NCBI GenBank assembly: GCA_035717985.1
Contig: DASTHW010000016.1
Span: 65,859-129,858, forward strand
Length of the DNA stretch: 64,000 nt
Direction of reading: 5' to 3'
Source of the DNA: Candidatus Saccharimonadales bacterium
GTDB taxonomy: Bacteria; Patescibacteriota; Saccharimonadia; Saccharimonadales; UBA10212
Shown one piece after another: positions 2,871 to 50,760 of this stretch. Each line of letters begins with the position of its first letter. The first letter of the stretch is position 1. The notes beneath the pieces were generated by a model. It was not told the DNA's origin. It saw nothing but the letters and a program-made list of their open reading frames with translations, and made no database searches. A program made the position numbers and the translations under genes.

Positions 2871-2960
2871 AAACTTGCCCGCCCTACCTTTTTTTGGTTA
2901 AATTGAGTCTAAGCGTGAAAAGTGGAAAGACACCAACTGCTAGCTTAAAAACGGATCAAA

Positions 2961-2986
2961 AGAGCTCCGCCAGGAGCTCTTTTTTT
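2961..2986 (+). terminator. Rho-independent terminator / possible carA attenuator
   Basis: Perfect 8-bp stem AGAGCTCC (2961-2968) / GGAGCTCT (2973-2980) with a GCCA loop and a T-run at 2981-2986 that abuts the carA ATG at 2987. The 3' arm contains the only SD-like AGGAG (2972-2976). Confidence 0.7.
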
Positions 2987-4009
2987 ATGAGAAAAAAAGC
3001 CTACTTAACTTTAGCCGGCGGCCAGGTTTTTCCCGGCTGGGGTGAAGTGAGTCAACTAGCCGCCGGTGAAGTAGTCTTCAATACCGGCATGACTGGCTAC
3101 GTAGAGTCGTTAACAGACCCTAGCTATGCCGGCCAGATCTTAGTATTCACCTATCCGTTAATCGGCAATTACGGTGTTCAGCTAGAAGCTAGTGAGTCTA
3201 AAAAAATCCAGGTTAGCGGCGCCGTAGTCTCTGAGAGTGCCCCGCATTTCAGCCACAGCCGGGCTGAACTGTCTCTAGCTGATTGGCTAGCTAGCCAAAA
3301 TGTGCCTTTACTGTCAGGAGTAGATACCCGTGCGCTGACTAAATATCTACGTACCCGCGGCACTACGCCGGGCGCTATTACCAGCCAGCCCATGACCGAT
3401 GTGCCGGGCTTTAGCCTCCAGCTATTCTCAGCTAATCCACCAAAAGTCTATAACCGCCAGCACTCAAAAAAAGTAATTCTGGTAGACTGCGGCGCTAAAG
3501 CCAATATCTTGCGCAGTCTTTTGACCCTGCCCGTGCAAGTAAAATTAGTGCCCTATGACTATGACTACACCACCGAGCCCTACGACGCCGTTTTAATATC
3601 TAACGGCCCCGGCGACCCGGTGGACTATAAAAAGACCATTGCGGTTACGGCCAAAGCTCTAAAGCGAGGTAAGCCGGTATTTGGCATATGCCTAGGTAAT
3701 CAAATTATGGCCCTAGCCGCCGAAGCTAAAACTTATAAATTGCTGTTCGGCCACCGCGGCCATAACCAGCCGTGCCAGGAAACTGCCAGCGGTAAGTGTT
3801 TTATTACCAGCCAAAATCATGGCTATGCCATTACCGAAAAAAGTCTGCCGGCCGACTGGCAAATAACATTTCGTAATCTCAATGACGGCTCGGTAGAGGG
3901 TATAGCCCATAAAACTAAGCCGTTTTTCTCTGTCCAATTCCACCCCGAGGCCTGCCCAGGCCCCACCGACACCGCCTGGCTATTTAAAAAATTTTATCAA
4001 CTGATATGA
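2987..4009 (+). CDS. carA: Carbamoyl-phosphate synthase small (glutaminase) subunit
   Basis: Same frame as track ORF 2894..4009. I moved the start to ATG 2987 (MRKKAYLTLAGGQVFPG), which matches CarA N-termini. Motifs: EVVFNTGMTGYVESLTDPSY, GICLGNQ, FHPE. The TGA stop overlaps the carB ATG (ATGA at 4006-4009). Confidence 0.93.
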   Translation: MRKKAYLTLAGGQVFPGWGEVSQLAAGEVVFNTGMTGYVESLTDPSYAGQILVFTYPLIGNYGVQLEASESKKIQVSGAVVSESAPHFSHSRAELSLADWLASQNVPLLSGVDTRALTKYLRTRGTTPGAITSQPMTDVPGFSLQLFSANPPKVYNRQHSKKVILVDCGAKANILRSLLTLPVQVKLVPYDYDYTTEPYDAVLISNGPGDPVDYKKTIAVTAKALKRGKPVFGICLGNQIMALAAEAKTYKLLFGHRGHNQPCQETASGKCFITSQNHGYAITEKSLPADWQITFRNLNDGSVEGIAHKTKPFFSVQFHPEACPGPTDTAWLFKKFYQLI

Positions 4010-7000
4010 CAAAGTCTATTAAAGTACGCAAAGTTGTTCTGCTGGGCTCGGGCGGACTGCGGATTGGCCAGGCTGGCGAGTTTGATTATTCTGGTTCGCA
4101 GGCCATCAAAGCTCTGCGCGAAGCCGGCGTTTACACGGTGCTTGTTAATCCGAATATTGCTACCGTCCAAACAGATACCGACATGGCCGATAAGGTCTAC
4201 TTTCAGCCGCTCAGCTTAACTAGCGTCACTAAAATTTTGCAAAAAGAGCGGCCGGATAGTATTTTGCTGAGCTTTGGCGGACAGACGGCCTTGAATTTGG
4301 GATTAGAACTTAACGATAAGGGCATCCTTGAAAAACTGGGTATTAGGGTGCTGGGCACACCGGTGCGCTCTATTAAATTAACTGAAGACCGCGAGCTATT
4401 TAAGCACACTCTTACTAAAATCGATGTCAAGACCGCCAAAAGCCAGGCTGTCTATGATTTAAAGTCAGCCCTACGCGCGGCTAACAAAATTGGCTATCCG
4501 GTCATGATGCGCTCCGGCTTCTCTCTGGGCGGACTGGGCTCTGGGCGGATCGATAATCCAGCTATGCTCAAAAAACGGGCCAGCGAGGCACTATCGGCCG
4601 TACCGCAGATTTTAATCGAAGAGTTCTTAGCCGGCTGGAAGGAAGTTGAGTATGAAGTGGTCCGCGATGGCAGTGGCAATGCTATCACCGTTTGCAATAT
4701 GGAGAATCTCGATCCTATGGGTATCCACACCGGCGAAAGCATTGTGGTGGCGCCCAGCCAGACGCTGACCAACGAGGAATATCACCGCCTGCGCGAAATC
4801 GCCATCAAAACTATTAGCCATCTAGGTATTATCGGTGAGTGCAATATCCAATACGCCTTGAACCCGGCTAACGGCGACTACCGCGTGATCGAGGTCAATG
4901 CCCGCCTGAGCCGCTCCAGTGCTTTGGCCTCCAAGGCCACCGGCTATCCCCTGGCTTACGTAGCCGCCAAGCTGGCCCTGGGAGCTAGTCTAAATGAACT
5001 AAAAAATTCGGTTACCGGCACTACGCCAGCCTTTTTCGAGCCGGCCCTTGATTATATAGCCGTTAAAATCCCCCGCTGGGATTTAAGTAAGCTAAAATCT
5101 AGCGACCACCAAATCGGTTCGGAAATGAAAAGTGTCGGCGAGGTGATGGCCCTGGGCCGGTCCTTCCCTGAGGCTCTGCAAAAAGGCCTGAGGATGTGCA
5201 ATATAGGGGCCCAAGGCTTAACCGACCATCCTTTCACCTTCGGCGACCCCTTGAGCGAAGTGGCCGACGCCACCGATAGACGAATCTTTGCGCTTTATGA
5301 AGCGCTGGCTCAAGGCGCCAGCGTTGAGCGCCTGCACCGGCTATCGGGCATTGATAGCTGGTTTTTGCAACACCTAGCCTTAATTACTGATTTTTATAGC
5401 TTTTTGTCAGCTAAACCTTTGAGTAAAGAGTTGTTAGCTGAGGCGAAAGAGCTGGGCTTTTCAGACAGTGTGATAGCTAAAGCTAAAAATCTCAGTGAGA
5501 CCGCCGTCAAAAGTAAACGTCTGGCCTGGGGTATACGCCCGGTGGTTAAGCAAATTGATACGCTAGCCGGCGAATTTGAGGCCGCTACCAACTACCTTTA
5601 TATGACTTACCACGGCCAGCAGGACGACGTAAAACCACTGAGCAAGAAAGCCATCACCGTAGTCGGCTCGGGGCCATACTGTATCGGCTCGTCGGTAGAG
5701 TTTGACTGGTGTGCCGTAAATACGGCCAAGACACTGAGCGAAAACGGCTGGCAGACCATTATGGTCAACTCTAACCCAGAGACCGTGTCTACGGATTTTG
5801 ACCGTTCTAGCCGGCTTTATTTTGAAGAACTAACCCTGGAGCGGCTACTTGATATTGCTGAGTTTGAAAAACCCCATGGCCTAATCGTATCGGTCGGCGG
5901 ACAGATTGCTAACAATTTAGCTTTGCCTCTAGCCCGTGCCGGCCAGAACATTCTGGGCACGCCGGCCGAGCAAATAGACCGCGCCGAGGACCGCCAAAAA
6001 TTCTCCAGTCTGCTAAATAAGCTTGGTATTGATCAACCGCTTTGGCAAGAAGTTACCAGCCTGGCTAGTGCTAAAAAGTTTGCCGCCCGGGTAGGCTACC
6101 CGGTATTAATTAGACCATCATATGTGCTGTCCGGTGGCGCTATGAATGTGGTGGCCGGTGAGGAGGATCTCGAAATTTATCTGCAGGCGGCCGCTAAATT
6201 ATCACCAGAACATCCGGTAGTAATATCGCAGTTTATCAGTCATTCCAAAGAACTAGAAATTGACGGCGTCGCCGAGAACGGCCAGCTGGTTATTTACGCT
6301 ATTTCCGAGCATGTTGAGAATGCCGGCGTGCACTCCGGCGACGCTACAGTAGTTTTCCCGGCTCAGACGCTTTATTTAGAGACGGTCCGCCGGGCAAAGC
6401 AAATTACCCGCCAAATTGTCAAAAATCTAAATATCACTGGACCATTTAACATCCAGTTCATTGCCAAAGATAACGAACTAAAAGTTATTGAATGCAATGT
6501 GCGGGCTTCGCGGTCCTTCCCTTTTGTTTCTAAAGTCTCTGGCCATAATTTTATCCAGATTGCCGCCGAGGCCATGCTGGGAATCAAAAACGAGCGCCAT
6601 TATCAGACCTTGGAATACGACTACGTGGGCGTAAAGAGCCCGCAGTTTTCCTATAATCGGCTTAAGGGTGCCGACCCGGTGGCCGGCGTAGAAATGGCAA
6701 GCACCGGCGAAGTGGCCTGTTTTGGCGATAATTTGCAGGAGGCTTTTTATGCTTCATGGCTGGCTACCGAGCAAAAAGTCAGGGGTAAAAACCTACTCAT
6801 TAGTCTACCGGCCGAACAACAGCCCCGCTTCATCGACGAACTTGCTCAGCTAATTAAACAGGGCTGGCAAGTCTTTGCCACCCCAGGTACCCATAAATTT
6901 ATGGCCGAGTTTAACCTAGCGACTAAGCCGCTTTATAAAATCAGTGAGAAGAAAGAGCCCAGTGTGCTGAGCGCCATCATCGGCCAAAAGCTGGATTTGA

Positions 7001-7194
7001 TTATCAATGTGCCCTCCACGGCTACCCTTAATAGTGACGGCTATAAAATCCGCCGGGCTGGAATAGATAATCACATTCCGCTAATGACCAACCCGGAGAC
7101 TGCCCGGCTTTTGTTACGATGCCTCGCTGAAAACACACAAGCCAGCGCCGAGCCGCATTCTTGGCAGGAATATTTAAGTTTAAATAATGCCTAA
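4006..7194 (+). CDS. carB: Carbamoyl-phosphate synthase large subunit
   Basis: 1062 aa with LGSGGLRIGQAGEFDYSG at the N-terminus, duplicated ATP-grasp halves (second half VGSGPYCIGSSVEFDW) and a C-terminal MGS-like allosteric domain. Confidence 0.97.
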   Translation: MTKSIKVRKVVLLGSGGLRIGQAGEFDYSGSQAIKALREAGVYTVLVNPNIATVQTDTDMADKVYFQPLSLTSVTKILQKERPDSILLSFGGQTALNLGLELNDKGILEKLGIRVLGTPVRSIKLTEDRELFKHTLTKIDVKTAKSQAVYDLKSALRAANKIGYPVMMRSGFSLGGLGSGRIDNPAMLKKRASEALSAVPQILIEEFLAGWKEVEYEVVRDGSGNAITVCNMENLDPMGIHTGESIVVAPSQTLTNEEYHRLREIAIKTISHLGIIGECNIQYALNPANGDYRVIEVNARLSRSSALASKATGYPLAYVAAKLALGASLNELKNSVTGTTPAFFEPALDYIAVKIPRWDLSKLKSSDHQIGSEMKSVGEVMALGRSFPEALQKGLRMCNIGAQGLTDHPFTFGDPLSEVADATDRRIFALYEALAQGASVERLHRLSGIDSWFLQHLALITDFYSFLSAKPLSKELLAEAKELGFSDSVIAKAKNLSETAVKSKRLAWGIRPVVKQIDTLAGEFEAATNYLYMTYHGQQDDVKPLSKKAITVVGSGPYCIGSSVEFDWCAVNTAKTLSENGWQTIMVNSNPETVSTDFDRSSRLYFEELTLERLLDIAEFEKPHGLIVSVGGQIANNLALPLARAGQNILGTPAEQIDRAEDRQKFSSLLNKLGIDQPLWQEVTSLASAKKFAARVGYPVLIRPSYVLSGGAMNVVAGEEDLEIYLQAAAKLSPEHPVVISQFISHSKELEIDGVAENGQLVIYAISEHVENAGVHSGDATVVFPAQTLYLETVRRAKQITRQIVKNLNITGPFNIQFIAKDNELKVIECNVRASRSFPFVSKVSGHNFIQIAAEAMLGIKNERHYQTLEYDYVGVKSPQFSYNRLKGADPVAGVEMASTGEVACFGDNLQEAFYASWLATEQKVRGKNLLISLPAEQQPRFIDELAQLIKQGWQVFATPGTHKFMAEFNLATKPLYKISEKKEPSVLSAIIGQKLDLIINVPSTATLNSDGYKIRRAGIDNHIPLMTNPETARLLLRCLAENTQASAEPHSWQEYLSLNNA

Positions 7195-7218
7195 AACTAG
7201 TATGCTGATGGAGTAATT

Positions 7219-8316
7219 ATGGCAAACAAGAATCTAGTCAAACCGTTTTATGATCCGGCCAAATCTTATGATGATAATTTCGATAACGGTCCGTTTGGTG
7301 CCAGCAAGGTAGAGCCTTATGTTAATCAGGGCGAGCCGCAGTTTAGCTTTCTAGGCATTCCGTTATATGCGCCTTTTGGTATTGCCGCCGGCCCCTTGCT
7401 TAACAGCCGGTTCGTAAAATTTGCGCTGGAAGCCGGCTTTGACGTACCGGTTTATAAAACTCAAAGGAGCATTCAGTTCCCGGCTAACCAATTTCCTAAT
7501 GTTCTTTATATCAATATTGACGGCGACCTAACGCTCGATAGGGCGGCTAAGCCGCTAATCGGCAGACGCTCAGCGAGTAAGCCGGTCAAAGAGTTAACTA
7601 TAACCAATTCTTTTGGTAATCCGTCGCGCGGGCCGGATTTTTGGACAACCGATTTAAAAAAAGTCCGGGCCTGTCAGGGCAAAGGTCAATTAGTTATTGG
7701 CAGTGCCGTAGGCAGTATTAAAGAGGGGTTCTCTAGCGAAGATTATTTTGACGACTTTGCCCTGGCGGCTGAAATGGTAACCAAAACCGGTGTGGATGTA
7801 GTCGAAATCAATCTATCTTGCCCTAATGTAGCCACCGAGGGCGTTCTCTGCTATACGCTAAACTCGGTAGTAGCAATCTGCCAGAAGGTTAGAGCCAAAA
7901 TCGGCAATAAGCCGCTAGTCATTAAGCTAGGCTATTTTTCGCCTGAGCAGGAGCCACTATTGGTGAAGGTTCTAAAAGAGGCAGCCGACTATATAAATGC
8001 CATTTCGGCTATCAATACCATACCGGCGCCGGTGGTTGATGAATCGGGTCGGCAGGCTCTGCCCGGCCCCAACCGGCTGAGCTCGGGTATTTGCGGCCAC
8101 GCCATTAAATGGGCTGGTCTGGATATGGTCAGCCGGCTGGCCGCTATCCGCAAAAAGCTAGGTCTTAAATTTGAGATTATTGGCGTGGGCGGCGTTATGA
8201 CGCCGGCAGATTTTAAAGACTACCGCGGTGCCGGCGCTGATCTAGTTCAGACTGCTACCGGCGCCATGTGGAACCCCGGGCTAGCCGCCGAAATTAAGAA
8301 AAGCCTGAAAGTTTAA
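7219..8316 (+). CDS. pyrD: Dihydroorotate dehydrogenase, class 1-like
   Basis: EINLSCPNV (class 1 catalytic Cys context), PLVIKLGYF and IIGVGGV are TIM-barrel DHOD motifs. There is an unusual ~45-aa N-terminal extension. A GGAG SD lies before the ATG. Confidence 0.85.
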   Translation: MANKNLVKPFYDPAKSYDDNFDNGPFGASKVEPYVNQGEPQFSFLGIPLYAPFGIAAGPLLNSRFVKFALEAGFDVPVYKTQRSIQFPANQFPNVLYINIDGDLTLDRAAKPLIGRRSASKPVKELTITNSFGNPSRGPDFWTTDLKKVRACQGKGQLVIGSAVGSIKEGFSSEDYFDDFALAAEMVTKTGVDVVEINLSCPNVATEGVLCYTLNSVVAICQKVRAKIGNKPLVIKLGYFSPEQEPLLVKVLKEAADYINAISAINTIPAPVVDESGRQALPGPNRLSSGICGHAIKWAGLDMVSRLAAIRKKLGLKFEIIGVGGVMTPADFKDYRGAGADLVQTATGAMWNPGLAAEIKKSLKV

Positions 8317-8322
8317 GATTCT

Positions 8323-9429
8323 CTAAAGCTGGTCCCCCCGGTTAATAAGTCGGCCAGTTTTAGCCATAATTTTGCCGTCAGCGACTAGCACCTGCTTGCC
8401 GATAACCACTTTTTTAACTTTGCCGGCGGCTAGCTTGCCAAGATACGGTGTCCAGCCGGAGCCAGACAGTCTAGTTTTTTCGTCGCCGATGCGGTGAATC
8501 TCCATCTGCCAAGTGACTTTAGTCGAGCCAGACAATTTCAAACCTATAATCTTCGCTGGTTTAGTAGATGTAATCTCGATAAGACGCTCCCGGCTAATGC
8601 GGCCTTTTACCATCTGGTAAAGCAGTAGCGGCAAAGCAAATTCGATACCTGGCACACCCCAGCAGGAACCGCCGGCATTTTCGGCTGTCCACTTAGCGCC
8701 AGCGCTGTGTGGTGCATGATCGGTCTCGACTATGTCTATAGCACCATTTACCAGCAGTTCGAAAAGCTTCTCGGCCTCTTCCTGGCGGGCCAGCGGCGGT
8801 TTCATGCGGGCAAACCAGCCCTCGCTCAGTGGGTCATGAGAAGTTTTAAATAAATGGTGCGGACAGACGCCGCAGGTTACCGGCAGGCCGTCGGCTTTGG
8901 CCTTTTCCACTAGCTCTACTTCTCGGCTGGCATTAACATGGCAGACATGGAGATGGTGACCAAATTTCCCCGCTATCAGTTCGATCAGGCCCGGCAGGTT
9001 GGTCTGCCCGGCGTGAAGCATGATGGGTTTAGCCGGCGCCGACTCGTGCCAAGCGCTAACAATTTTAGTGAAGTCTTTGGCGGTGTAATCTTTATCACTG
9101 CCAGTGGTGGGCGCACTATAAAGCTTTAGGCCAATGGCAGGCTTAGCCATAGCCGGCAGTTGGTCTAAATTATTTGATTCCGGCTGAGCGCCGGCGTAAA
9201 GGCCAACCGGCACATACGCGCTCTTTCTAATAAGCCTTTGTTTTTCGATCAATCTATGGGCGCTCCAGGTGGGCCGGCCTGGGTTATTTGGCATGTCGCA
9301 AATTGCTGTAAACCCGCCCAGCAGAGCCGCCCGCGTGCCGCTGGCAATAGTCTCGGCTTTATTGTCGCCAGGCTGACGCAAGTGCACGTGTATATCCACC
9401 GCTCCGGGAATTTCCAAAATCTCGGTCAT
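8323..9429 (-). CDS. pyrC: Dihydroorotase
   Basis: VDIHVHLRQPG metal-binding motif and amidohydrolase-fold histidines (HVCHV, DHAPH). Its start overlaps the pyrB stop by 1 nt. Confidence 0.88.
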   Translation of the reverse strand: MTEILEIPGAVDIHVHLRQPGDNKAETIASGTRAALLGGFTAICDMPNNPGRPTWSAHRLIEKQRLIRKSAYVPVGLYAGAQPESNNLDQLPAMAKPAIGLKLYSAPTTGSDKDYTAKDFTKIVSAWHESAPAKPIMLHAGQTNLPGLIELIAGKFGHHLHVCHVNASREVELVEKAKADGLPVTCGVCPHHLFKTSHDPLSEGWFARMKPPLARQEEAEKLFELLVNGAIDIVETDHAPHSAGAKWTAENAGGSCWGVPGIEFALPLLLYQMVKGRISRERLIEITSTKPAKIIGLKLSGSTKVTWQMEIHRIGDEKTRLSGSGWTPYLGKLAAGKVKKVVIGKQVLVADGKIMAKTGRLINRGDQL

Positions 9430-10352
9430 TAATTACTGCTTAAAACGTAATCTATCAGAGCCATCCGCACAAACAGGCCGTTGGCCGCCTGCTGAAAATA
9501 AATGGCCCGCGGGTCGCTGTCCGTTTCAGGGGTGATTTCATCAATCCTCGGTAGCGGATGCATAATCACAGCTGATTTTTTAAGGCTTTTTAGAGACTGC
9601 TTATTGATGGTAAAGCCAGCCGGAATAGAGTTAGGGTCTCTTAAATATTCTTTTTGTAGACGAGTCCAGTAAACTACGTCGGCGCCGGCTAGGGCACTAG
9701 GCACATCGGTCGTCTCGCTATAGCTGGTTCCCTTTTGGTCTAAATATTTTTTGATGTCGGCTGTCACTTTAAGTTCTGGTATAGACACAAAAGTTATCCT
9801 GTTATTCGGGTAAAGCGCCAGGATTTTTGATAGCGAGCGCACCGTCCGGCCAAAGCGTAAATCACCGCCAAAAGTTATATCTAGATTATCAAGCCGACCG
9901 TGAGCTTTATATATAGTGTAAGCATCCAACAGCGACTGAGAGGGGTGCTCGCCCATGCCATCGCCGGCGTTAATTATCGGCGTCTTGCAGACGGCCGCCG
10001 CCCGGGCGGCGGCACCAGCCTCGTAATGACGCATAACAATAACATCGTATTTATAGCCGTCGAGTATTTTAAAGGTATCATCTATGGTTTCGCCTTTGGC
10101 GGAGCTGGAGTGCTCGCGGGCGTTCTCGGTACTAATAACGCCCATACCTAGTCTGACGGCGGCCGTCTCGAAGCTAAGACGAGTGCGCGTTGATGGCTGG
10201 AAAAAGATGCTGGCCAGCTGATGGTAGGCATAGAGCTGGGCTGTTTTTTTGCGCCCAGCCTTATAATCCGCCTGGGACTTAAAATAATCGGCCCGCTCAA
10301 AAATTTTTTCTAATTGCTTTTTGTCAATTTGACTGGCCGATATCAAATGCAT
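9429..10352 (-). CDS. pyrB: Aspartate carbamoyltransferase catalytic subunit
   Basis: STRTRLSFE, HPSQ and HPLPR motifs. I moved the start to ATG 10352 (MHLISASQIDK), preceded by GGGAG. The track's longer ORF would overlap the NYN gene. Confidence 0.95.
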   Translation of the reverse strand: MHLISASQIDKKQLEKIFERADYFKSQADYKAGRKKTAQLYAYHQLASIFFQPSTRTRLSFETAAVRLGMGVISTENAREHSSSAKGETIDDTFKILDGYKYDVIVMRHYEAGAAARAAAVCKTPIINAGDGMGEHPSQSLLDAYTIYKAHGRLDNLDITFGGDLRFGRTVRSLSKILALYPNNRITFVSIPELKVTADIKKYLDQKGTSYSETTDVPSALAGADVVYWTRLQKEYLRDPNSIPAGFTINKQSLKSLKKSAVIMHPLPRIDEITPETDSDPRAIYFQQAANGLFVRMALIDYVLSSN

Positions 10353-10362
10353 TGCTCGCTCC

Positions 10363-11013
10363 CTACTTTTTGTCGTCAGGTTTTCTGAATCGTTTATAAT
10401 AGGCCAGCTGGCGACGCTTTTGATCGAGGCGGATAATATATTTATCAAACTGCCTCAGCAAAGTTGAATACTGGCGATTAGGCACCAGCAGGTGGGCCAG
10501 CTTATTTTTATCGATCAAATACTCGATTAAGCCGTAAAAGTCACCGTCGCCCGAAATAATGACAGCCTTAGAATACCTAGGCATTTCTTTAACCGCCCAG
10601 AGCACCAGCTCTACATCAACATTACCCTTCACTGTCCGCTGGGCGGCGGCTGAGTGGCCGTTTTCCGGATCTGCCGATGTTGGCACTAGCGACTCGGCGG
10701 CCCGTTCACCAAAAGTCTTAAAAGGTTCGTGTCCGTTACTGCTAGCATTCTCGGCCGGCTCCGGCGCCGGCACCTTAAACATCTCTAGCGTCGGCTTTAG
10801 AACCACCAGATAGCCGGCGTCATGCATCTGGTTATACAAATCCTCGTTTTCCGGCATATAGCCGATAAACATGTAGGCCTTTTCTACTCCCAGCTCTTTA
10901 CGCAGGTAAGATCGGAATTTGCGCCAATCCATCTTCCAGCCCAGCTTCTGGATGCCCAGATTCAAGTTTTGATTGTCTATAAAAGCGTAGTTATGCTTTG
11001 ATTTTTGATTCAT
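10363..11013 (-). CDS. NYN/LabA-like domain protein with a ~50-aa low-complexity insertion
   Basis: N-terminal AFIDNQNLNL and C-terminal KGNVDVELVLWA...VIISGDGDFYGLIEYL match NYN (PIN-like) motifs. They are separated by the insert PAPEPAENASSNGHEP...ENGHSAAAQ. Confidence 0.7.
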   Translation of the reverse strand: MNQKSKHNYAFIDNQNLNLGIQKLGWKMDWRKFRSYLRKELGVEKAYMFIGYMPENEDLYNQMHDAGYLVVLKPTLEMFKVPAPEPAENASSNGHEPFKTFGERAAESLVPTSADPENGHSAAAQRTVKGNVDVELVLWAVKEMPRYSKAVIISGDGDFYGLIEYLIDKNKLAHLLVPNRQYSTLLRQFDKYIIRLDQKRRQLAYYKRFRKPDDKK

Positions 11014-20644: not shown

Positions 20645-21700
20645 CTAAGATTTCCTCCGGCCGCCCAGGCCCTCGCGCACGGCTTTTTGATAAAAATAGT
20701 AGCCCGGCGTTAGCTGAATAACCATATTAATAACGCGGTACATGATTGTAACCGGGATACTCAAAGAAGCCGAGATGCCAGCAATTGCCAGCACGGCAGT
20801 CATCAGCCCTTCGTATATACCAATACCGGCCGGCAAAATTGACACTAGGCCAGCGAAGTTAGCAATGGCGTAGGCTAAAATCACAGCCCCGACATTAACC
20901 AGCCGGCCAAAAGCTATATAGACTACGTAGACGGCGGCTACCTCTGTAAGATTGGCGATTATCATGTACAAAAATGGTTTTTTAAGCTGGCGCCACTTCT
21001 CTTTCAAGACAACATAATTGTCATGTAGCTCCATAAAGGTGGACTGAGCGTTCTCAATGTTAATGGTCTCTGGGTGGCGCCGGCGGACTAGGTGTATGAG
21101 CCAGTTCAGCCAACGGGTTATGACTGTCAGTGAAGAGTTTATTCGCTGTCGACTTTCCAGCACATAAAGAGCCACGAAAGTTCCAACAATCATTAGGGTG
21201 ATTAGCGAACCAGCCACTAGAATCACCAGATTATTAACGTGCCCGCGCAGAGCCAGCAGAAAAATACCAACCACTAAAATCGGCTGAAAACTAAGATATA
21301 GCAAAAACAGCTTTAGAAATTGTGCCAATGTAGCTTTGGCGCCACTAACGCCTTGGCTTCTCATTCTCACCGTAAAGTAGCTGATACCGCTGACGCCACC
21401 GCTGGGCAAAATATGATTAACAAAGTTAAGCTCCAGCGTTAGCCTAAACATTGGTTTATAGGGTACCTTTTCGCCCAAGATGCGGAAAACTTCCCGGTAG
21501 AGACGAGCATAAGAGTCATAATTGATAATCTCAATCGGGATTATTAAAAGAAGTGCCCAGGCGTTAACCTTACCTAGATTAGTAATGACCGAGCCGATTT
21601 GCCGGCGCAGGCTGTAGATTAAAATTATTAACGCCACGAAGGTGGCCAGCGTTAATACCAGCTTCCAGCGGGACTGCCGAGGGGCCGACTCTTGATTCAT
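20645..21700 (-). CDS. Flippase-like / lysylphosphatidylglycerol-synthase TM-region (UPF0104) family membrane protein
   Basis: About 8 TM, 351 aa, with conserved-looking PSGGVSGISYF and ILPAGIGIYE segments. Confidence 0.5.
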   Translation of the reverse strand: MNQESAPRQSRWKLVLTLATFVALIILIYSLRRQIGSVITNLGKVNAWALLLIIPIEIINYDSYARLYREVFRILGEKVPYKPMFRLTLELNFVNHILPSGGVSGISYFTVRMRSQGVSGAKATLAQFLKLFLLYLSFQPILVVGIFLLALRGHVNNLVILVAGSLITLMIVGTFVALYVLESRQRINSSLTVITRWLNWLIHLVRRRHPETINIENAQSTFMELHDNYVVLKEKWRQLKKPFLYMIIANLTEVAAVYVVYIAFGRLVNVGAVILAYAIANFAGLVSILPAGIGIYEGLMTAVLAIAGISASLSIPVTIMYRVINMVIQLTPGYYFYQKAVREGLGGRRKS

Positions 21701-24156: not shown

Positions 24157-25770
24157 CTAGCTGTTGGCAATGGATGCCCGGATGAAGCCGCCGAACAGCG
24201 GATGCGCCCGGTTGGGCCGGGAGCGAAATTCCGGATGCGCCTGGGTGGCCAAGAAATAAGGATGATCCAGTGCCTCAATAACTTCTACCAGGTGGCCGTC
24301 AGGGCTAAGGCCGCTAGCTGTTATTCCCCAGTCGGCGTATTGGTCGCGGTAGGCGTTATTGCACTCACAGCGGTGGCGATGCCGCTCAATTATCTCGCCC
24401 TGACCGTAGGCTTTTCTGGCCTTAGTGCCGCTAGCTAAAGCCGTAGGATAGTCGCCCAGGCGCATGGTACCGCCGGTATTTTTTTTATCAGCCTGGTCGG
24501 CCATGTAATCAATAACTTTATGCGGGCTATCCGGATCCAGCTCAACAGTGGTGGCACTAGTCAGCCCTGCCCGCCGGGCGGCGGCAATAACCGCCATCTG
24601 TAGACCCAGACAAAGCCCCAGATAAGGAATTTTATTATCCAGGCAGTAACCAGCGGCCGCAATTTTGCCCTCTAGACCGCGCTCGCCAAAGCCGCCCGGC
24701 ACCACCACGCCGTCCAGTTCTTCCAGTATGCCTAGCGATTTTTGACTTTTGCCTAAATCCTCGGCGCTAATCCAAACAATATCGACATTGACGCTCGCCG
24801 ACCAGCCGGCGGCCCGCAAGGCCTCAAACACGCACATATAGGTGTCTTGATTGTCTACATACTTAGCAATAATGCCTATACGGACGGTTTTAGGATATTT
24901 TTTAATGGCGCTTTCCACCATCCGCCGCCAAGAACTAAGGCTAGCCGGCGCTCGGCGCAGATCTAATCTGTCAGTAATAATGCCGCCAATGCCGCTGTCC
25001 TCTAGCGTCAGCGGTACCTGATAAATCGTCTTAGCATTAGGCAGTAGCACAATAGCCTCCGGCTCCACGCCGCTAAAGATACTGAGTTTTTGAATAACCG
25101 AGCGCGGCGGCTTTAGTTCTGAGCGGCCAATTAAAATATCCGGCACAATCCCAAGTCCGCGCAGTTCATGCACGCTGTTTTGAGCCGGCTTGGTTTTAAA
25201 TTCCTGGCTGGTACCCAGATAAGGCAGATAAACCACGTGCACAAACAGACAGTTGTCCGGGCCTAAGCGCATAGCCATTTCGCGGATAGCCTCCAGAAAA
25301 CTGCGCGACTCAATGTCGCCGATGGTGCCGCCAATCTCGACGATATGCACGTCAAAACCTTGGCCGGTCTGAGCTATAGCTTCCTGGATGTGATTGGTGA
25401 CATGCGGGATAATTTGTACGGTCTTACCCCTATATTTGCCGGCCCGCTCGGCGCTAATCACATCACGCAGTACCCGCCCGCTCATCAGCGAGCTGGCCTG
25501 CGTCAGCTCGACATCCAAAAACCGCTCATAGTGGCCAACGTCCAGGTCGGTTTCGGCACCGTCACGGGTGACAAAACATTCACCATGCTCAGCGGGGTTT
25601 AAGAGCCCGGCGTCAACGTTTAGATAAGGATCGCACTTTTGGATGTTTACCGTCAGCCCCCGGGCTTTAAGGATAGTTCCAATAGAGGCGGCGGTGATGC
25701 CTTTACCGACACCAGACAGCACACCGCCTGTCACAAAAATATACTTAGCTGACTTGGCTTTAACCGCCAC
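24157..25770 (-). CDS. pyrG: CTP synthase
   Basis: YIFVTGGVLSGVGKG and the GATase domain GLCLGLQ...HPEF. GTG start with GGGAGG upstream. Confidence 0.97.
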   Translation of the reverse strand: MAVKAKSAKYIFVTGGVLSGVGKGITAASIGTILKARGLTVNIQKCDPYLNVDAGLLNPAEHGECFVTRDGAETDLDVGHYERFLDVELTQASSLMSGRVLRDVISAERAGKYRGKTVQIIPHVTNHIQEAIAQTGQGFDVHIVEIGGTIGDIESRSFLEAIREMAMRLGPDNCLFVHVVYLPYLGTSQEFKTKPAQNSVHELRGLGIVPDILIGRSELKPPRSVIQKLSIFSGVEPEAIVLLPNAKTIYQVPLTLEDSGIGGIITDRLDLRRAPASLSSWRRMVESAIKKYPKTVRIGIIAKYVDNQDTYMCVFEALRAAGWSASVNVDIVWISAEDLGKSQKSLGILEELDGVVVPGGFGERGLEGKIAAAGYCLDNKIPYLGLCLGLQMAVIAAARRAGLTSATTVELDPDSPHKVIDYMADQADKKNTGGTMRLGDYPTALASGTKARKAYGQGEIIERHRHRCECNNAYRDQYADWGITASGLSPDGHLVEVIEALDHPYFLATQAHPEFRSRPNRAHPLFGGFIRASIANS

Positions 25771-38110: not shown

Positions 38111-38905
38111 TCAATGCAGAGTGCCGGCAAAAATTTGCCAAGCTAGAGCCGTCTGGGCGATGAGATTTAGCACAATCGACATTTTTTCACCGAATAAATA
38201 ATTTTCCCAGTGGCCGATTTTTTGCCGCTGAAAGCCGGTATTGACTATTAAGCTGGCGAACAGCAAAACCATGGTTATTAACAGCCAGTAGATATAAACC
38301 GGCAGAGAGCTACCATAGGCGTAAGCTCCCCAAAGGTAAAGAATTATTACCACCCAAGGTAAAACGATGGCCCCTGCCCCAAACCAAAAACTTAGCCAGT
38401 TGGCCGGCCGGACCACTTCCAGCAGTAGCCCCAGCAGGGCCGCCAGCGCTGTTAAGCCGGCAATCAATATTAGGCTAGGTAAGTCATAAATGCCAACCAG
38501 TAGAGCAATGGTGGCCATCATAAGCGCCGTACTGACAGCTAAGCCTATCCAGCGCTGACGATTGTAATTTACCTGCAGGTCCTCTTTATAGGTCCGGTTA
38601 AAGATGGTGGCTGACAGGAAATAGCTGACGCCGCTAACTAATAAGAATGCCGCCACTAAATACAGCAGGTTTATTGATACTAAATGATGGCTGGCTTGAG
38701 CCAGCACGGATTGACCTTGGGCCCGGGAGGCTAGATTATCCTTAGTCAGGTAGCTGATTGTAACCGGCCTTACACCGCTTGAGCCACGACCGATAAACAG
38801 CAAAATTATCGCCTGGATAATTAGCACTAAAGAGGCAAAAACATTAAACCGTCTAAGACTGAATCTAAATATACGCCAAGCCATAAGTGGAATATTGCTC
38901 TCCAT
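38111..38905 (-). CDS. Heliorhodopsin-like 7-TM protein lacking the Schiff-base lysine
   Basis: Seven hydrophobic helices. The C-terminal GHWENYLFGEKMSIVLNLIAQTALAWQIFAGTL, LSFWFGAGAIVLPW and RQRWIGLAVS match heliorhodopsin motifs recalled from memory. Gln251 sits at the Lys position. The start could be M1 (38905) or M8 (38884). Confidence 0.65.
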   Translation of the reverse strand: MESNIPLMAWRIFRFSLRRFNVFASLVLIIQAIILLFIGRGSSGVRPVTISYLTKDNLASRAQGQSVLAQASHHLVSINLLYLVAAFLLVSGVSYFLSATIFNRTYKEDLQVNYNRQRWIGLAVSTALMMATIALLVGIYDLPSLILIAGLTALAALLGLLLEVVRPANWLSFWFGAGAIVLPWVVIILYLWGAYAYGSSLPVYIYWLLITMVLLFASLIVNTGFQRQKIGHWENYLFGEKMSIVLNLIAQTALAWQIFAGTLH

Positions 38906-47847: not shown

Positions 47848-48411
47848 TTAGATGGTCAGAATTTCCTGCTCTTTAGCTTTAGCCAGAGCTTCAACCTCTT
47901 GTTTTTGCTCAGCCAGCAGATCATCGACCTGTTTCTCTAGACGCAAACGGTCATCTTTGCTAATCTGTTTGTCTTTCTCGGCCTGCTCGGTGCGGCGCAT
48001 AGCCTCATGGCGGATTTGGCGGCCGCTAATTAAACATTCTTCCAGCTTCTGACCCACAATTTTCACCATCTGGCCTCTGGTCTCCTCTGTCAGAGGCGGA
48101 ATTTGGATCCGCACGACCCGGCCGTCGTCAGCCGGATTCAGTCCCAGGGACTGGTCGTCTCTAATGGCGGTTGAGATGGCTTTTAAATTAGCCGGGTCAA
48201 ACGGCGAAACCTGAATTAACTGAGCTTCGGGCGTAGTGATAGTGGCGACTGCTTTTAAGGGCATAGTTTGCCCGTAGGCCTCTACCATTACCCCGTCCAG
48301 CATTCCGGGGTGGGCCCGGCCGGTGCGGATCTTACTCAGCTCCTCACGAAGGTGGTCCGAAGTAGCGGCTAATCTACGCTTAGTCTCCTCGACTGCCTGA
48401 TTTGAATTCAT
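47848..48411 (-). CDS. frr: Ribosome recycling factor
   Basis: KIRTGRAHPGMLDGVMVEAYG...LGLNP...IRIQIPPLTEE. I chose the start at ATG 48411, giving 187 aa; the track TTG at 48426 lies inside a TATAAT box. Confidence 0.95.
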   Translation of the reverse strand: MNSNQAVEETKRRLAATSDHLREELSKIRTGRAHPGMLDGVMVEAYGQTMPLKAVATITTPEAQLIQVSPFDPANLKAISTAIRDDQSLGLNPADDGRVVRIQIPPLTEETRGQMVKIVGQKLEECLISGRQIRHEAMRRTEQAEKDKQISKDDRLRLEKQVDDLLAEQKQEVEALAKAKEQEILTI

Positions 48412-48417
48412 TTTAAA

Positions 48418-48423
48418 ATTATA
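48418..48423 (-). promoter_or_regulatory. -10 box (TATAAT) 6 nt upstream of the frr ATG; candidate leaderless promoter
   Basis: The minus strand reads ttgTATAATtttaaaATG. The -35 is poor. Confidence 0.4.
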
Positions 48424-48478
48424 CAATATTCACTACCCTTGAAGAATAAGCATTTAAATGTTATAAATTATTCTGGCC

Positions 48479-48507
48479 TTGACACTATAACCCTGCCAAC
48501 TTTAAGT
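48479..48507 (+). promoter_or_regulatory. Sigma70-like promoter of cassette module 1
   Basis: TTGACA (48479-48484), a 17-nt spacer, then TTAAGT (48502-48507). AAAGGAGA SD at 48523-48530. Confidence 0.45.
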
Positions 48508-48533
48508 CTCGCACCTATTGTCAAAGGAGAAAA

Positions 48534-48719
48534 ATGTCCTCAGCCGACTGGCTCAAGGTGGCCGGGACCTACGCCGTCTTGGCGTTGGCCGGATTCAAGA
48601 CGTACAGGTCTCTGGAGCGCGGCGAAATCGTCCGGTCCATGAGCCTGGCGAGCGTGCTGGCCTCTGTCGGGGTCTGCGTCTACTCAGCGTTGGCGGCAAT
48701 TGCCGTTACGAACTCCTAG
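48534..48719 (+). CDS. Small two-TM membrane protein (61 aa)
   Basis: ATG 4 nt after AAAGGAGA, GC3-rich codons, and two hydrophobic helices (WLKVAGTYAVLALAGF / LASVLASVGVCVYSALAAIAV) joined by a basic loop. Confidence 0.6.
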   Translation: MSSADWLKVAGTYAVLALAGFKTYRSLERGEIVRSMSLASVLASVGVCVYSALAAIAVTNS

Positions 48720-48726
48720 GGAGGGG

Positions 48727-48807
48727 ATGATGAGCCGTAGTGAAACGGCCCTCCGCTGGCTGATGGTGATGGTAGCCCTGGCTACCATCCTCGTCCTGGC
48801 CCGTTAG
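48727..48807 (+). CDS. Micro-ORF, 26-aa single-TM peptide
   Basis: Not in the ORF track (<60 aa). GGGAGGGG SD lies right before ATGATG. It translates to MMSRSETALRWLMVMVALATILVLAR and has GC3-rich codons. Confidence 0.45.
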   Translation: MMSRSETALRWLMVMVALATILVLAR

Positions 48808-48909
48808 CGGACAGGCGCTGGAGGTGTTAACCCTCCGGCAAGCGGCCGACACTTAGTCGGTCCCGGGTAAGTGCGGGGTTGAAGCGCGTCTTAGAGCGCT
48901 CCCCCGCTG

Positions 48910-48954
48910 GCGGCATGAACCGCTCGCAGTATTTTTTACTCGCGGTCATGCCGC
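48910..48954 (+). terminator. Long imperfect inverted repeat; putative terminator of cassette module 1
   Basis: GCGGCATGA-ACCGC-TCGCAGTA / TACT-CGCGG-TCATGCCGC gives about 18 bp with three bulges and a TTTTT loop, followed by CTCTTTCATT. Confidence 0.4.
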
Positions 48955-48979
48955 TCTTTCATTAAATAATCCCTGCCAT

Positions 48980-49008
48980 TTGATAATGGCTCAATAAAAT
49001 TTTATAAT
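48980..49008 (+). promoter_or_regulatory. Near-consensus sigma70 promoter of cassette module 2
   Basis: TTGATA (48980-48985), a 17-nt spacer, then TATAAT (49003-49008), within a ~30% GC spacer. Confidence 0.65.
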
Positions 49009-49075
49009 TCGCCTCAGTTTACGTCCCCGTACACCCATGCGAGCGTAGGCTCGCTCCTCAACAAGGAGGTACCTC

Positions 49076-49729
49076 TTGACGGCTATCGCCGTACCAGCTC
49101 CGCAGGAGCCGGTTGATCCGGTCAGAGCGTTCATCGACCGCACTGCCGGCCGGCTGTTCGCGGCCGCGGGCTTCACGCCCAACCAGGTGACCGTTCTGGG
49201 CACCCTGGTGGCCCTGAGCGGGTGCGCGGTCTGGACCCAGCAGACGCACTCGCCCAAGCTGTACTGGGTGGGCTGGGGCCTGACGCTCGGCGGCACGGGG
49301 CTCGACGCTCTTGACGGTTCAGTCGCGCGGGTGAGAAACATGCACACCCGGTTCGGCGGCCTGCTGGACTCGCTGACCGACCGGGTCGTCGAGACTGCCA
49401 TCTGGGCGGCTCTGTTCTGGCTCTGCTCCGCCGACTGGGGCCGGCTGGGCTGTCTGCTGGCCCTGGCTGGTTCGTTCATGGTCAGCTACACGCGGGCCAA
49501 GGCGGAGCTGGACGGCCTGCGCGGCACGGCTGGCTGGGGATCGCGCCAAGTGCGCCTGCCCCTGCTGGCTGTCTGCGTGCTGGCGGCCCACTGGACCGGC
49601 TACAACTGGGTCGGCTGGCCGGTGGCCGTGCTGGCCTGGCTGACGGTCATCCAGCGCGCCGGTTCGATCAATCGTCAACTGAGCCCGTCCGACGATCCCA
49701 CTAGCTGGGGTCACGGTGGACAGCTCTAA
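49076..49729 (+). CDS. CDP-alcohol phosphatidyltransferase (PIP-synthase/PgsA-like, ~6 TM)
   Basis: TTG start 6 nt after AAGGAGG (49063-49069). It has the full motif D77-x2-D80-G81-x2-A84-R85-x8-G94-x3-D98-x3-D102 (LDALDGSVARVRNMHTRFGGLLDSLTD, nt 49304-49381). Confidence 0.9.
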   Translation: MTAIAVPAPQEPVDPVRAFIDRTAGRLFAAAGFTPNQVTVLGTLVALSGCAVWTQQTHSPKLYWVGWGLTLGGTGLDALDGSVARVRNMHTRFGGLLDSLTDRVVETAIWAALFWLCSADWGRLGCLLALAGSFMVSYTRAKAELDGLRGTAGWGSRQVRLPLLAVCVLAAHWTGYNWVGWPVAVLAWLTVIQRAGSINRQLSPSDDPTSWGHGGQL

Positions 49730-49744
49730 CCGAGAGGAGGGCTT

Positions 49745-49942
49745 TTGAGTCCGTTCGAACGCTGGCTGATCGCCGTCAGCTTGAACCTGCTCGGTGCGGC
49801 GTCGGCCATCTTCTGGCGTCAGTGCCGAAACGGCGGCGTGGTGTCCCTTGGGCGGTTCTCCGTCAGCGGGGTGGTGCCAGCTCTGGTGGGCGCCGGCGGA
49901 GTCGCTCTCATGACGGGCGACATCCTCTACATCTACGCATAG
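49745..49942 (+). CDS. Small two-TM membrane protein (65 aa)
   Basis: TTG start 4 nt after GAGGAGG (49734-49740). Two helices (WLIAVSLNLLGAASAIFW / VVPALVGAGGVALMTGDILYIY) joined by a basic loop, with GC3-rich codons. Confidence 0.55.
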   Translation: MSPFERWLIAVSLNLLGAASAIFWRQCRNGGVVSLGRFSVSGVVPALVGAGGVALMTGDILYIYA

Positions 49943-49955
49943 AGAAGGAGGAGAC

Positions 49956-50060
49956 GTGCTGGAGTGGCTGTGGGCCAGCCTGGTGTGGTCCGGTGTCGGG
50001 CTGGCGTTTGGCGGCCCGCTCGCCGCCCACGCCCTGCTGGAAGCTCAGCCGGGGCCATGA
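49956..50060 (+). CDS. Micro-ORF, 34-aa single-TM peptide
   Basis: Not in the ORF track. GTG start 4 nt after AAGGAGGAG. It translates to MLEWLWASLVWSGVGLAFGGPLAAHALLEAQPGP, with almost every third codon position G/C. Confidence 0.45.
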   Translation: MLEWLWASLVWSGVGLAFGGPLAAHALLEAQPGP

Positions 50061-50085
50061 CGCCGGCTTTCCGGTACCTCCAAGC

Positions 50086-50152
50086 AGAACCCCGCCCGAG
50101 GCACGCCTCGGGCGGGGTTCTCCGTGCGGCCGATGGGTACGGCCGCTTTTTT
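50086..50152 (+). terminator. Tandem terminators closing the cassette
   Basis: Hairpin 1 is a perfect 16-bp stem, AGAACCCCGCCCGAGG-CACG-CCTCGGGCGGGGTTCT (50086-50121), with no U-tract. Hairpin 2 is GCGGCCG-ATGGGTA-CGGCCGC (50126-50146) followed by T6 (50147-50152). The pair lies 9 nt from the convergent tsf stop. Confidence 0.8.
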
Positions 50153-50160
50153 AATTTAGA

Positions 50161-50760
50161 TTAGCTAACTTCGCCTAAAACCATGCGCGAAAAGCGCCTT
50201 ACAACAATGTTTTCGCCCAGTTTAGCAATGTGCTCTTTAATGTAATCGCCAACCTTAATATCTGGGTTTTTGATGAAGGCCTGATCACTCAAGCACTTCT
50301 CGGCAAAATATTTGGCTAGCTGACCCTCGACTATTTTATCTATCATTTCGGATGGTTTACCCTCGGCTTTGGCCTTGTCGCTAAACTCAGCTGAGACTGT
50401 CTTTTTGACGCTGGCCGGCACGTCGCCTGCTGAAATATATTCTGGCCCAGCGGCCGCTATGTGCAGGCAAATATCTTTAACTAACTCCTTAAATTCATCA
50501 GTCTTAGCTACAAAATCGGTCTCGCAGTTTACCTCGCAGATGACACCAATGCGGCCGTCGTGCACATAGGAGCCGATTAAGCCGGCCCGGGCCTCGCGTT
50601 CGCCGCGCTTCTCGGCTTTGGTTAGGCCTTTTTTACGCATTGCTGAGAGAGCTTTGTCGAAATCACCTTTAGCCTCTACTAGGGCCTGCTTAGCGTCGGT
50701 TATGCCGACGCCGGTCAGGCTCCGCAGGCGTTTAATTTCGTCGATTGATATGTCGGCCAT
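50161..50760 (-). CDS. tsf: Elongation factor Ts (short ~200-aa form)
   Basis: N-terminal UBA-like IKRLRSLTGVGITDAKQALVEAKGDFDKALSAMRKKG and VNCETDFVAKT. Its start overlaps the rpsB stop (TAATG). Confidence 0.95.
   Translation of the reverse strand: MADISIDEIKRLRSLTGVGITDAKQALVEAKGDFDKALSAMRKKGLTKAEKRGEREARAGLIGSYVHDGRIGVICEVNCETDFVAKTDEFKELVKDICLHIAAAGPEYISAGDVPASVKKTVSAEFSDKAKAEGKPSEMIDKIVEGQLAKYFAEKCLSDQAFIKNPDIKVGDYIKEHIAKLGENIVVRRFSRMVLGEVS

Follow-up and report, generated by a model that had tools for sequence, protein, structure and literature searches.

The 64-kb stretch of DNA analysed here (the window), part of contig DASTHW010000016.1 of a Candidatus Saccharimonadales bacterium, carries between the genes frr and tsf a gene for a 217-amino acid (aa) membrane protein of the CDP-alcohol phosphotransferase family, which is referred to as the transferase in the following. 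Four independent tests, namely scores against NCBIfam models, a sequence search of the PDB, structural comparison with Foldseek and the conservation of functional residues, agree that the transferase is an inositol-phosphate-type enzyme and neither PgsA nor PssA. It probably acts in the synthesis of phosphatidylinositol-phosphate (PIP) and belongs to an accessory cassette, which would have been exchanged between lineages and whose old origin would be compatible with an actinomycete donor. Judged from its members' sequences, the subfamily is a separate and rare clade of 25 proteins, whose genomic context is so far known only from Saccharimonadales. Bacteria of the Candidate Phyla Radiation are believed to make their membranes out of lipids from the host, the tailoring of which is little known, and inositol lipids are rare in Bacteria. 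As a small and easily cloned enzyme, the transferase offers a route to learning whether some epibionts make inositol lipids.

Placement of the transferase in the inositol-phosphate branch

49076..49729, + strand: transferase gene; 217 aa, TTG start; predicted CDP-alcohol phosphotransferase similar to phosphatidylinositol-phosphate synthases (PIPS) and archaetidylinositol-phosphate synthases (AIPS), i.e. of the inositol-phosphate branch; juxtamembrane helix and six transmembrane (TM) helices

An earlier reading of the letters alone (the sequence-only reading) had described a 217-aa protein with about six TM helices and a complete catalytic motif at nucleotides (nt) 49304-49381, which the translation and an AlphaFold2 model bear out. 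The residues D77, D80, G81, A84, R85, G94, D98 and D102 are all present and make up the complete D1xxD2G1xxAR...G2xxxD3xxxD4 motif of TM2-TM3, which runs from D77 (nt 49304-49306) to D102 (nt 49379-49381). These residues are invariant across a five-member clade, the sole exception being a lysine in place of R85 in the protein P0005. The transferase scores 51.9 bits against the Pfam family PF01066 (gathering cut-off 22, E=1.5e-13), the check that the sequence-only reading had proposed, and consists of this single domain. In the AlphaFold2 model, which is based on an 82-sequence alignment (mean pLDDT 91.7, pTM 0.84), helices span residues 15-30 (the juxtamembrane helix), 35-53, 61-86, 92-116, 120-145, 157-174 and 180-202, and Foldseek matches the model with a probability of 1.00 to seven solved family members. 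Purifying selection is apparent from a comparison of the related loci L001 and L004, whose transferase genes differ at 13, 15 and 46 first, second and third codon positions, respectively. The identical protein is recorded in the database as a CDP-alcohol phosphatidyltransferase family protein of a Candidatus Saccharimonadales metagenome-assembled genome, and since ten further contigs from nine other sequencing runs carry the gene in the same slot between frr and tsf, a chimeric assembly is ruled out. The transferase is rather likely an intact, expressed-looking membrane enzyme of class I of the CDP-alcohol phosphotransferases; its intact motif, conserved contacts, expression signals and purifying selection all point to the functional protein that the sequence-only reading had expected.

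Among the NCBIfam models, AIPS (NF040950) gives the transferase its highest score with 119.7 bits, followed by bacterial PIPS (NF045883) with 86 bits and the Bacteroides PIPS with 74.5 bits. The DIPPS model (NF041135) reaches 48.8 bits at a cut-off of 580, the PgsA model TIGR00560 reaches 28.4 bits at a cut-off of 109, and PssA reaches 27 bits. The alignment to the AIPS model is full-length (residues 19-201 to positions 11-190 of 191). A sequence search of the PDB returns mycobacterial PIPS as the top match (63 bits; 91 bits with a profile of the clade), followed by the Renibacterium PIPS, AF2299 and DIPPS; PgsA and PssA reach only E values of about 0.01-0.08 with the clade profile (PgsA, E=0.08). 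In Foldseek, the model superimposes on PIPS structures with TM-scores of 0.74-0.81 and a root mean square deviation (rmsd) of about 2.4 Å, and on PgsA and PssA structures with TM-scores of 0.45-0.50 and an rmsd above 5 Å. Grouping with an ordinary PgsA of the same lineage, the outcome that the sequence-only reading had named against itself, was not observed (TM-score 0.46-0.50, besides the PgsA model score given above).

Mutagenesis has assigned the inositol-phosphate site of the Mycobacterium tuberculosis enzyme (MtPIPS) to S132, K135, R155 and R195 (Clarke et al. 2015, PMC4634129). In an alignment of 172 sequences, these contacts correspond to S137, R140, R160 and R194 of the transferase; for R195, the mapping is that of this alignment, a pairwise profile alignment having placed the residue about seven residues off. 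R160 forms part of an RxxR motif with R157. All inositol-phosphate contacts are invariant in the transferase clade, and R157, R160 and R194 are invariant in 172 of 172 aligned sequences. An inositol-phosphate acceptor is a well-supported prediction for the transferase. NCBIfam scores, PDB search, Foldseek and acceptor residues thus confirm the membership in the PIPS/AIPS branch that the sequence-only reading had proposed. Its narrower assignment to an actinobacterial-type PgsA1, however, did not hold: the AIPS model outscores the PIPS model, both scores lie below the cut-offs, and classical PIPS is the sister group in only about 12% of bootstraps.

On the PIPS model, the members of the clade score 66-99 bits, and on either model the transferase and its clade range from 66 to 120 bits. 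As controls, the classical actinobacterial protein of Asanoa reaches 218.8 bits on the PIPS model (cut-off 170) and archaeal proteins reach 179.8-202 bits on the AIPS model (cut-off 180). The controls score as designed, and the low scores therefore mark a distinct, uncurated branch. A Thermoleophilia/Actinomycetes sister group scores 116-147 bits on either model, i.e. below both cut-offs. The possibility that the transferase is a DIPP synthase (IPCT-DIPPS) was rejected: no CTP:inositol-1-phosphate cytidylyltransferase is fused or adjacent to it, and its neighbours are only small hydrophobic open reading frames (ORFs).

The frr-tsf slot and its cassette

On the minus strand, the gene order of the window is rpsB-tsf, the island with the transferase, and frr-rseP-CPBP protease-proS-greA, with neither uppS nor cdsA after frr. 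The absence of cdsA from the frr neighbourhood, which the sequence-only reading had noted, is correct: frr is directly followed by rseP, and relatives keep uppS near frr (L003, L086; L086 also with a polyprenyl synthase) but likewise have no cdsA. The features of the slot are as follows, GC3 being the GC content at third codon positions and UTR the untranslated region:

47848..48426, - strand: frr (ribosome recycling factor), left border of the slot; PF01765 in syntenic loci
48534..48807, + strand: upstream GC-rich module of this genome only; 61-aa ORF with two TM helices (48534-48719, GC3 0.86) and 25-aa hydrophobic ORF (48730-48807), each with a ribosome-binding site
48906..48954, + strand: long hairpin GCGGCATGAACCGCTCGCAG...ACTCGCGGTCATGCCGC between the upstream module and the transferase promoter, read from the sequence, its inner part detected as terminator-like; likely a terminator or insulator
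48980..49008, + strand: sigma-70-type promoter TTGATA-17-TATAAT (11/12 matches) in an AT-rich patch; kept in L001 and L004
49039..49069, + strand: 5' UTR with stem-loop GCGAGC-GUAG-GCUCGC (49039-49054), then ribosome-binding site AAGGAGG (49063-49069); conserved in the DNA alignment
49745..49942, + strand: probable membrane protein of 65 aa with two TM helices, directly after the transferase; own ribosome-binding site, GC3 0.83
49956..50060, + strand: 34-codon hydrophobic ORF, a doubtful gene; in-frame stop in the L004 counterpart, absent from L001, no convincing homologue
50081..50155, no strand assigned: convergent terminator region common to tsf; hairpin with 22-nt arms (50081-50126), then GCGGCCG...CGGCCGC with a T-run (50126-50155); kept in L004
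50161..50760, - strand: tsf (EF-Ts), right border of the slot; PF00889 in syntenic loci

The TTG start of the transferase lies 7 bases past the AAGGAGG sequence, and the window, L001 and L004 all keep the AT-rich promoter, the 5' UTR stem-loop, the ribosome-binding site, the TTG start, the small downstream ORF and the terminator. The stem-loop folds no better than shuffled sequences (z = -0.95) and is not claimed to be a regulator; Rfam returned only chance-level matches on 48300-50300 and no riboswitch in the 270-nt upstream gap. The 61-aa and 25-aa upstream ORFs have no homologue in any fetched locus, and other lineages (L086, L091) possess unrelated small hydrophobic ORFs at this position. 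In L003, the position directly 5' of the transferase (6849-6965, + strand) is taken by an ORF of 38 aa with the N-terminal methylation motif of type IV pilins (PF07963) and a GC3 of 0.97.

The transferase occupies the frr-tsf slot, on the strand opposite to these two genes and in Saccharimonadales-type synteny, in the window, L001/L002, L004, L003, L086, L087/L088 and L091. It thus resides in this slot in at least seven Saccharimonadales lineages (seven to eight), which must be deeply diverged since, with the exception of the pair L086-L091, the identities of their flanking proteins reach only 63-76%. In a word-indexed search across 5.8 billion proteins, only five family members came up and only four relatives exceeded 40% identity, and an exhaustive profile search of 1.84 billion representatives returned a graded series of 38 proteins below E=1e-30.

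The slot itself was surveyed using tsf of the window as a probe against metagenome contigs, which retrieved 80 loci. The transferase is absent from all of the approximately 35 loci whose tsf is 55-84% identical; in many of these, tsf and frr abut (6-120 bp), and alternative cargo includes a GNAT acetyltransferase and an amino-acid kinase. Because these related loci do without the transferase and carry other cargo, the slot is best regarded as a variable hotspot and the transferase as an accessory gene. The locus closest by tsf (L092, 82% identity) contains two PLD-family (PLDc_2) genes adjoining tsf on the opposite strand (3505-4677 and about 4718-5779, both - strand), the first identified by a Pfam scan and the second judged similar by eye from its translation. 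The PLD family includes cardiolipin-synthase/transphosphatidylase-type enzymes, and a second kind of phospholipid head-group enzyme would therefore be present in the slot. Four loci harbour an orphan multi-TM protein of 138-148 aa head-on to tsf and frr (L095:3950-4366, L096 at about 4094-4510, L110:2083-2529 and L125:4864-5301, all - strand), whose gene has a GC3 of 0.83-0.88, the loci themselves having 55-59% GC. This protein matches no Pfam family, and its only relatives found are near-identical copies. The gene pyrH, which canonically lies between tsf and frr, is missing there in every Saccharimonadales-like locus. Distant loci with a tsf that is at most 50% identical do have a pyrH motif in the slot, and these loci presumably stem from other phyla.

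The 65-aa ORF downstream of the transferase has homologues among the small ORFs in L001 (E = 3e-4) and L004 (E = 1e-3), relative to which it has an in-frame 39-nt indel. The sequence constraint on it is weak (7/5/7 differences at codon positions 1/2/3), so its coding status is probable, not proven. In the proteins P0136, P0284 and P0139, the transferases are 238-245 aa long and carry a C-terminal hydrophobic extension that matches the first helix of the 65-aa ORF; the start of this extension, KPGERFAGLL, resembles the N-termini of the separate ORFs (SPFERWLIAV, QGERALIAY and NAERFILYA), and AlphaFold renders the fused extension as a seventh helix with a pLDDT of about 70. Such a pattern of fused and split seventh helices suggests a physical partnership, and the small membrane protein probably associates with the transferase.

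In all pairs of lineages other than L086 and L091, the flanks are 63-76% and the transferases 41-55% identical. The exception is the pair of the window and L001, whose flanks are 68% and whose transferases are 71% identical, and whose synonymous-site excess is 0.26 for the transferase vs 0.06 for the flanks (four-fold). Because of this anomaly, the cassette is concluded to have moved between Saccharimonadales lineages after their divergence. L086 and L091, whose flanks are 91% and whose transferases are only 65% identical, serve to calibrate the relative rates. Neither flanking repeats nor a tRNA gene nor an integrase was found as an integration scar at the cassette, which is probably exchanged by recombination through the conserved flanks. 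The cassette appears to descend within lineages, with occasional exchange among them, and its patchy occurrence in a fixed slot provides a handle on gene exchange among uncultured Saccharimonadales.

Phylogeny, composition and the proposed route

A scan of 185,579 GTDB species genomes yielded uncultured soil Actinomycetes, Thermoleophilia and Gaiellales as the best matches (36-41% identity), with Bathyarchaeia among them, and returned no Saccharimonadales. Of 80 GTDB homologue loci, 51 have a gene for myo-inositol-1-phosphate synthase (MIPS) at a distance of up to 6 kb, and the clusters of L005 and L089 have the order PAP2-transferase-MIPS-GT4. In both of the latter, the GT4 glycosyltransferase directly after MIPS is fused to a PHP phosphoesterase domain (L005:7014-9524 and L089:3404-5188, both + strand), and the fused protein may account for the still poorly defined PIP phosphatase step together with a PimA-like one. 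Trees were calculated by neighbor-joining (NJ) with Kimura distances. In a first tree of 172 sequences with five family members, the sister group was not resolved, classical PIPS appearing in about 12% and AIPS-like proteins in about 20% of bootstraps; classical PgsA1 was rejected as the closest relative. In an expanded tree, the family forms a 25-member clade with 62% NJ bootstrap, and the sister group in the best tree consists of 37 members of the Actinomycetota with a GC3 of about 0.91. The origin most compatible with these data would be an old transfer from a high-GC actinomycete related to Thermoleophilia or Gaiellales.

The transferase gene has a GC content of 0.69 and a GC3 of 0.85 and is the sole GC3 outlier among about 65 genes of the window, the others ranging from 0.42 to 0.60. 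The same holds for all seven other loci, with a transferase GC3 of 0.70-0.86 vs 0.42-0.65 in the flanks. If amelioration were neutral and both of two lineages retained most of a GC3 excess, a large excess of identity would be expected between them. Four-fold-degenerate sites, however, are saturated between the window and L003 (identity excess 0.02 in the transferase, 0.05 in the flanks). The high GC3 is therefore not due to a mere lack of time and must be maintained or repeatedly renewed, which is a minor yet genuine anomaly and a warning against the use of GC content as a clock of horizontal transfer in these genomes.

In the proposed route, the transferase would move the phosphatidyl group of CDP-diacylglycerol (CDP-DAG) onto L-myo-inositol-1-phosphate, thereby giving PIP and CMP, and a phosphatase would then convert PIP to phosphatidylinositol (PI). 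In this way, scavenged lipids would receive a new head group in a bacterium that is unable to make fatty acids, with the small downstream membrane protein working alongside the transferase. The cassette of promoter, transferase, small ORF and terminator would sit head-on in the variable frr-tsf slot of a minority of soil Saccharimonadales lineages. The exchange of head groups is proposed because Saccharibacteria, which have no fatty-acid synthesis, presumably scavenge their lipids (PMC10508740). CdsA, PgsA, Cls and PI synthase have been predicted in a soil Saccharibacterium (Starr et al. 2018, PMC6031116), the only literature found on CdsA or CDP-DAG in Saccharibacteria; owing to this prediction, a CDP-DAG route is plausible in these bacteria, and the general idea is not new. 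Of the two roles suggested by the sequence-only reading, membrane remodelling appears plausible and host mimicry is hypothetical. The apparent separation of the transferase from MIPS hints at a host dependence beyond bulk lipid.

Several observations weigh against a PIP-synthesizing enzyme of actinomycete descent. The transferase stays under the NCBI equivalog cut-offs of both PIPS (170 bits) and AIPS (180 bits). At the acyl groove, P153 and M69 of MtPIPS correspond to Q158 and A78 of the transferase, positions that vary within its clade, and since these residues are not kept, CDP-DAG is less well supported as the lipid donor. The tblastn searches of the window and of some 70 kb of related Saccharimonadales loci (L001-L004, L085-L087, L091) gave neither MIPS nor a PAP2 phosphatase, and neither CdsA nor a lipid phosphatase nor a PimA-like GT4 is present among the 20 window proteins scanned with Pfam (about 40 window ORFs were unscanned). 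With respect to origin, identities to proteins outside the family end at about 41%, both in the search of 5.8 billion proteins and in the GTDB scan, and the Actinomycetota sister group of the best tree is recovered in about 30% of replicates. The GC3 of 0.83-0.88 in the orphan membrane gene, which is unrelated to the transferase and has no outside relatives, finally means that a foreign origin cannot be read cleanly from a high GC3.

Part of these observations could be explained if the same fold served a different chemistry, either with a soluble donor such as CDP-inositol or CDP-glycerol (compare DIPPS and AF2299) for the synthesis of a solute or a wall-polymer or lipoglycan linkage, or with an isoprenoid-based, AIPS-like donor, or with an acceptor other than inositol-1-phosphate. 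The higher score of the AIPS model, the lack of conservation of the groove residues P153 and M69, the lack of MIPS by tblastn in the window and related loci and of CdsA among the scanned window proteins, an extra helix or partner protein that is absent from characterised enzymes, and the proximity of uppS and a polyprenyl synthase in relatives all fit such an enzyme. The set of inositol-phosphate-binding Ser and Arg residues, however, is fully kept, and characterised members of the branch such as PIPS, AIPS and DIPPS take inositol-1-phosphate as acceptor. Unlike DIPPS, the transferase has no cytidylyltransferase as a domain or neighbour, and alanine is the usual residue at the position of P153 in the MIPS-linked bacterial sister group as well as in AIPS. 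On this evidence, a different chemistry is unlikely, and PIP synthesis is the preferred reading.

It is still less probable that the transferase is an old native gene of Saccharimonadia or Patescibacteria, which never came from Actinomycetota, was lost often and owes its composition to a process specific to the slot. Such a history would agree with the occurrence of the family solely in Saccharimonadales-type contexts wherever the context is known, with an unrelated, equally GC3-rich orphan gene that occupies the slot in the same direction, and with the weak support for the actinomycete sister group. It conflicts with the absence of the gene from about 35 related tsf loci, in many of which tsf and frr directly abut, with the GTDB species scan, which returned no Saccharimonadales, and with the anomaly between the window and L001, which indicates lateral movement; moreover, no known mechanism holds a slot of 1-2 kb at a GC3 of 0.85 in a genome of 50% GC. 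A recent horizontal capture by this genome from a current actinobacterial host, with a high GC because there was no time to ameliorate, would account for the GC of 0.69 and the GC3 of 0.85 (0.42-0.60 in every other window gene), the strand opposite to all neighbours and the soil Actinomycetes among the named relatives, but is effectively refuted by the equal slot, promoter and TTG start in at least seven lineages with flanks of 63-76% identity, a best non-family match of at most 41% identity (5.8 billion proteins, 185,579 species genomes), the lack of repeats, tRNA gene or integrase at the cassette, and four-fold sites that are saturated between lineages with a high GC3 in all.

The sequence-only reading had assumed an acquisition from an actinobacterial host. 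What stands of this is the compositionally foreign character of the gene and, weakly, the Actinomycetota as best sister group; a recent capture from the host does not stand. The wording should be replaced by that of a divergent PIPS/AIPS-like accessory cassette in the frr-tsf slot, which is exchanged among some soil Saccharimonadales and possibly has an old actinomycete origin. It is tempting to go further, although this extension is doubtful, and to speculate that a Saccharimonadales-specific subfamily with a split or fused seventh helix makes inositol phospholipids from host lipid and host-supplied inositol-1-phosphate or CDP-DAG, and that its mobile cassette belongs to a frr-tsf hotspot that collects head-group enzymes (such as the PLD family in L092) and GC-rich membrane genes, with a high GC3 that is actively maintained.

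Elsewhere in the window, a 351-aa protein with an MprF-like LPG_synthase_TM (flippase-type) domain (20645-21700, - strand) is a further lipid-related membrane protein in a genome that is presumably lipid-scavenging. A pyrimidine-biosynthesis block (1335-10448) comprises carA-carB-like, pyrC-like and pyrB-like ORFs, which were called by ORF sizes and N-termini, and a dihydroorotate dehydrogenase identified by Pfam. It exceeds the nucleotide biosynthesis usually assumed for Saccharibacteria. A CTP-synthase-like ORF is located at 24157-25770, and the supply of CTP bears on CDP-activated lipid chemistry. A heliorhodopsin gene (PF18761, 192 bits) is found at 38111-38905 (- strand).

Comparison with known systems

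The bacterial PIPS/PgsA1 enzymes of M. tuberculosis (Rv2612c), M. kansasii and Renibacterium salmoninarum (PDB 6H53, 6WM5, 5D91) have the fold of the transferase, at the TM-scores and rmsd given above, and share with it a length of about 200-220 aa, six TM helices and a juxtamembrane helix, the complete motif and the inositol-phosphate contacts, i.e. the serine, the K/R position, the RxxR motif and the arginine of the QR pair in TM6. They are, however, only about 27-29% identical to the transferase, which scores 86 bits on their model vs the cut-off of 170 and has replaced the proline of the groove. Unlike PIPS, the transferase is neither part of a pgsA1-acyltransferase-pimA operon nor close to MIPS, is accompanied by an extra downstream or fused helix and belongs to a fatty-acid-auxotrophic epibiont. 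AIPS (NF040950), the top-scoring curated model, shares the segments TPNQVT and VSYTRA(K/R)AE with the transferase and has alanine rather than proline at the groove, but uses CDP-archaeol, whereas the transferase remains below the cut-off of this model (180 bits) and is encoded by a bacterial genome with presumably ester lipids. The context is bacterial (rpsB-tsf, frr, rseP, proS), and neither CarS nor ether-lipid genes are present among the window proteins scanned.

For 'Candidatus Teamsevenus rhizospherense', likewise a soil Saccharibacterium without fatty-acid synthesis, a CDP-DAG-inositol-type transferase and a possible link to Actinobacteria have been described (Starr et al. 2018, PMC6031116). 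That description is annotation-based and, in contrast to the window proteins scanned here, includes CdsA and PimA-like genes.

The nearest proteins by family profile are those of the Thermoleophilia/Gaiellales/soil-Actinomycetes branch (L005-L015, L020-L031, L089; P0144-P0152, P0287-P0292), which score 140-161 bits, the remaining proteins listed reaching at most about 135 bits, and are encoded in PAP2-transferase-MIPS-GT4(PHP) clusters. They have in common with the transferase their length, N36, R140, the A/Q states of the groove, a GC3 of about 0.9 and the soil habitat. Unlike the cassette, they are at most 41% identical to the transferase, always lie in an inositol cluster with MIPS adjacent and have no small downstream helix ORF. 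The Saccharimonadales cassette has either lost this inositol cluster or never had one.

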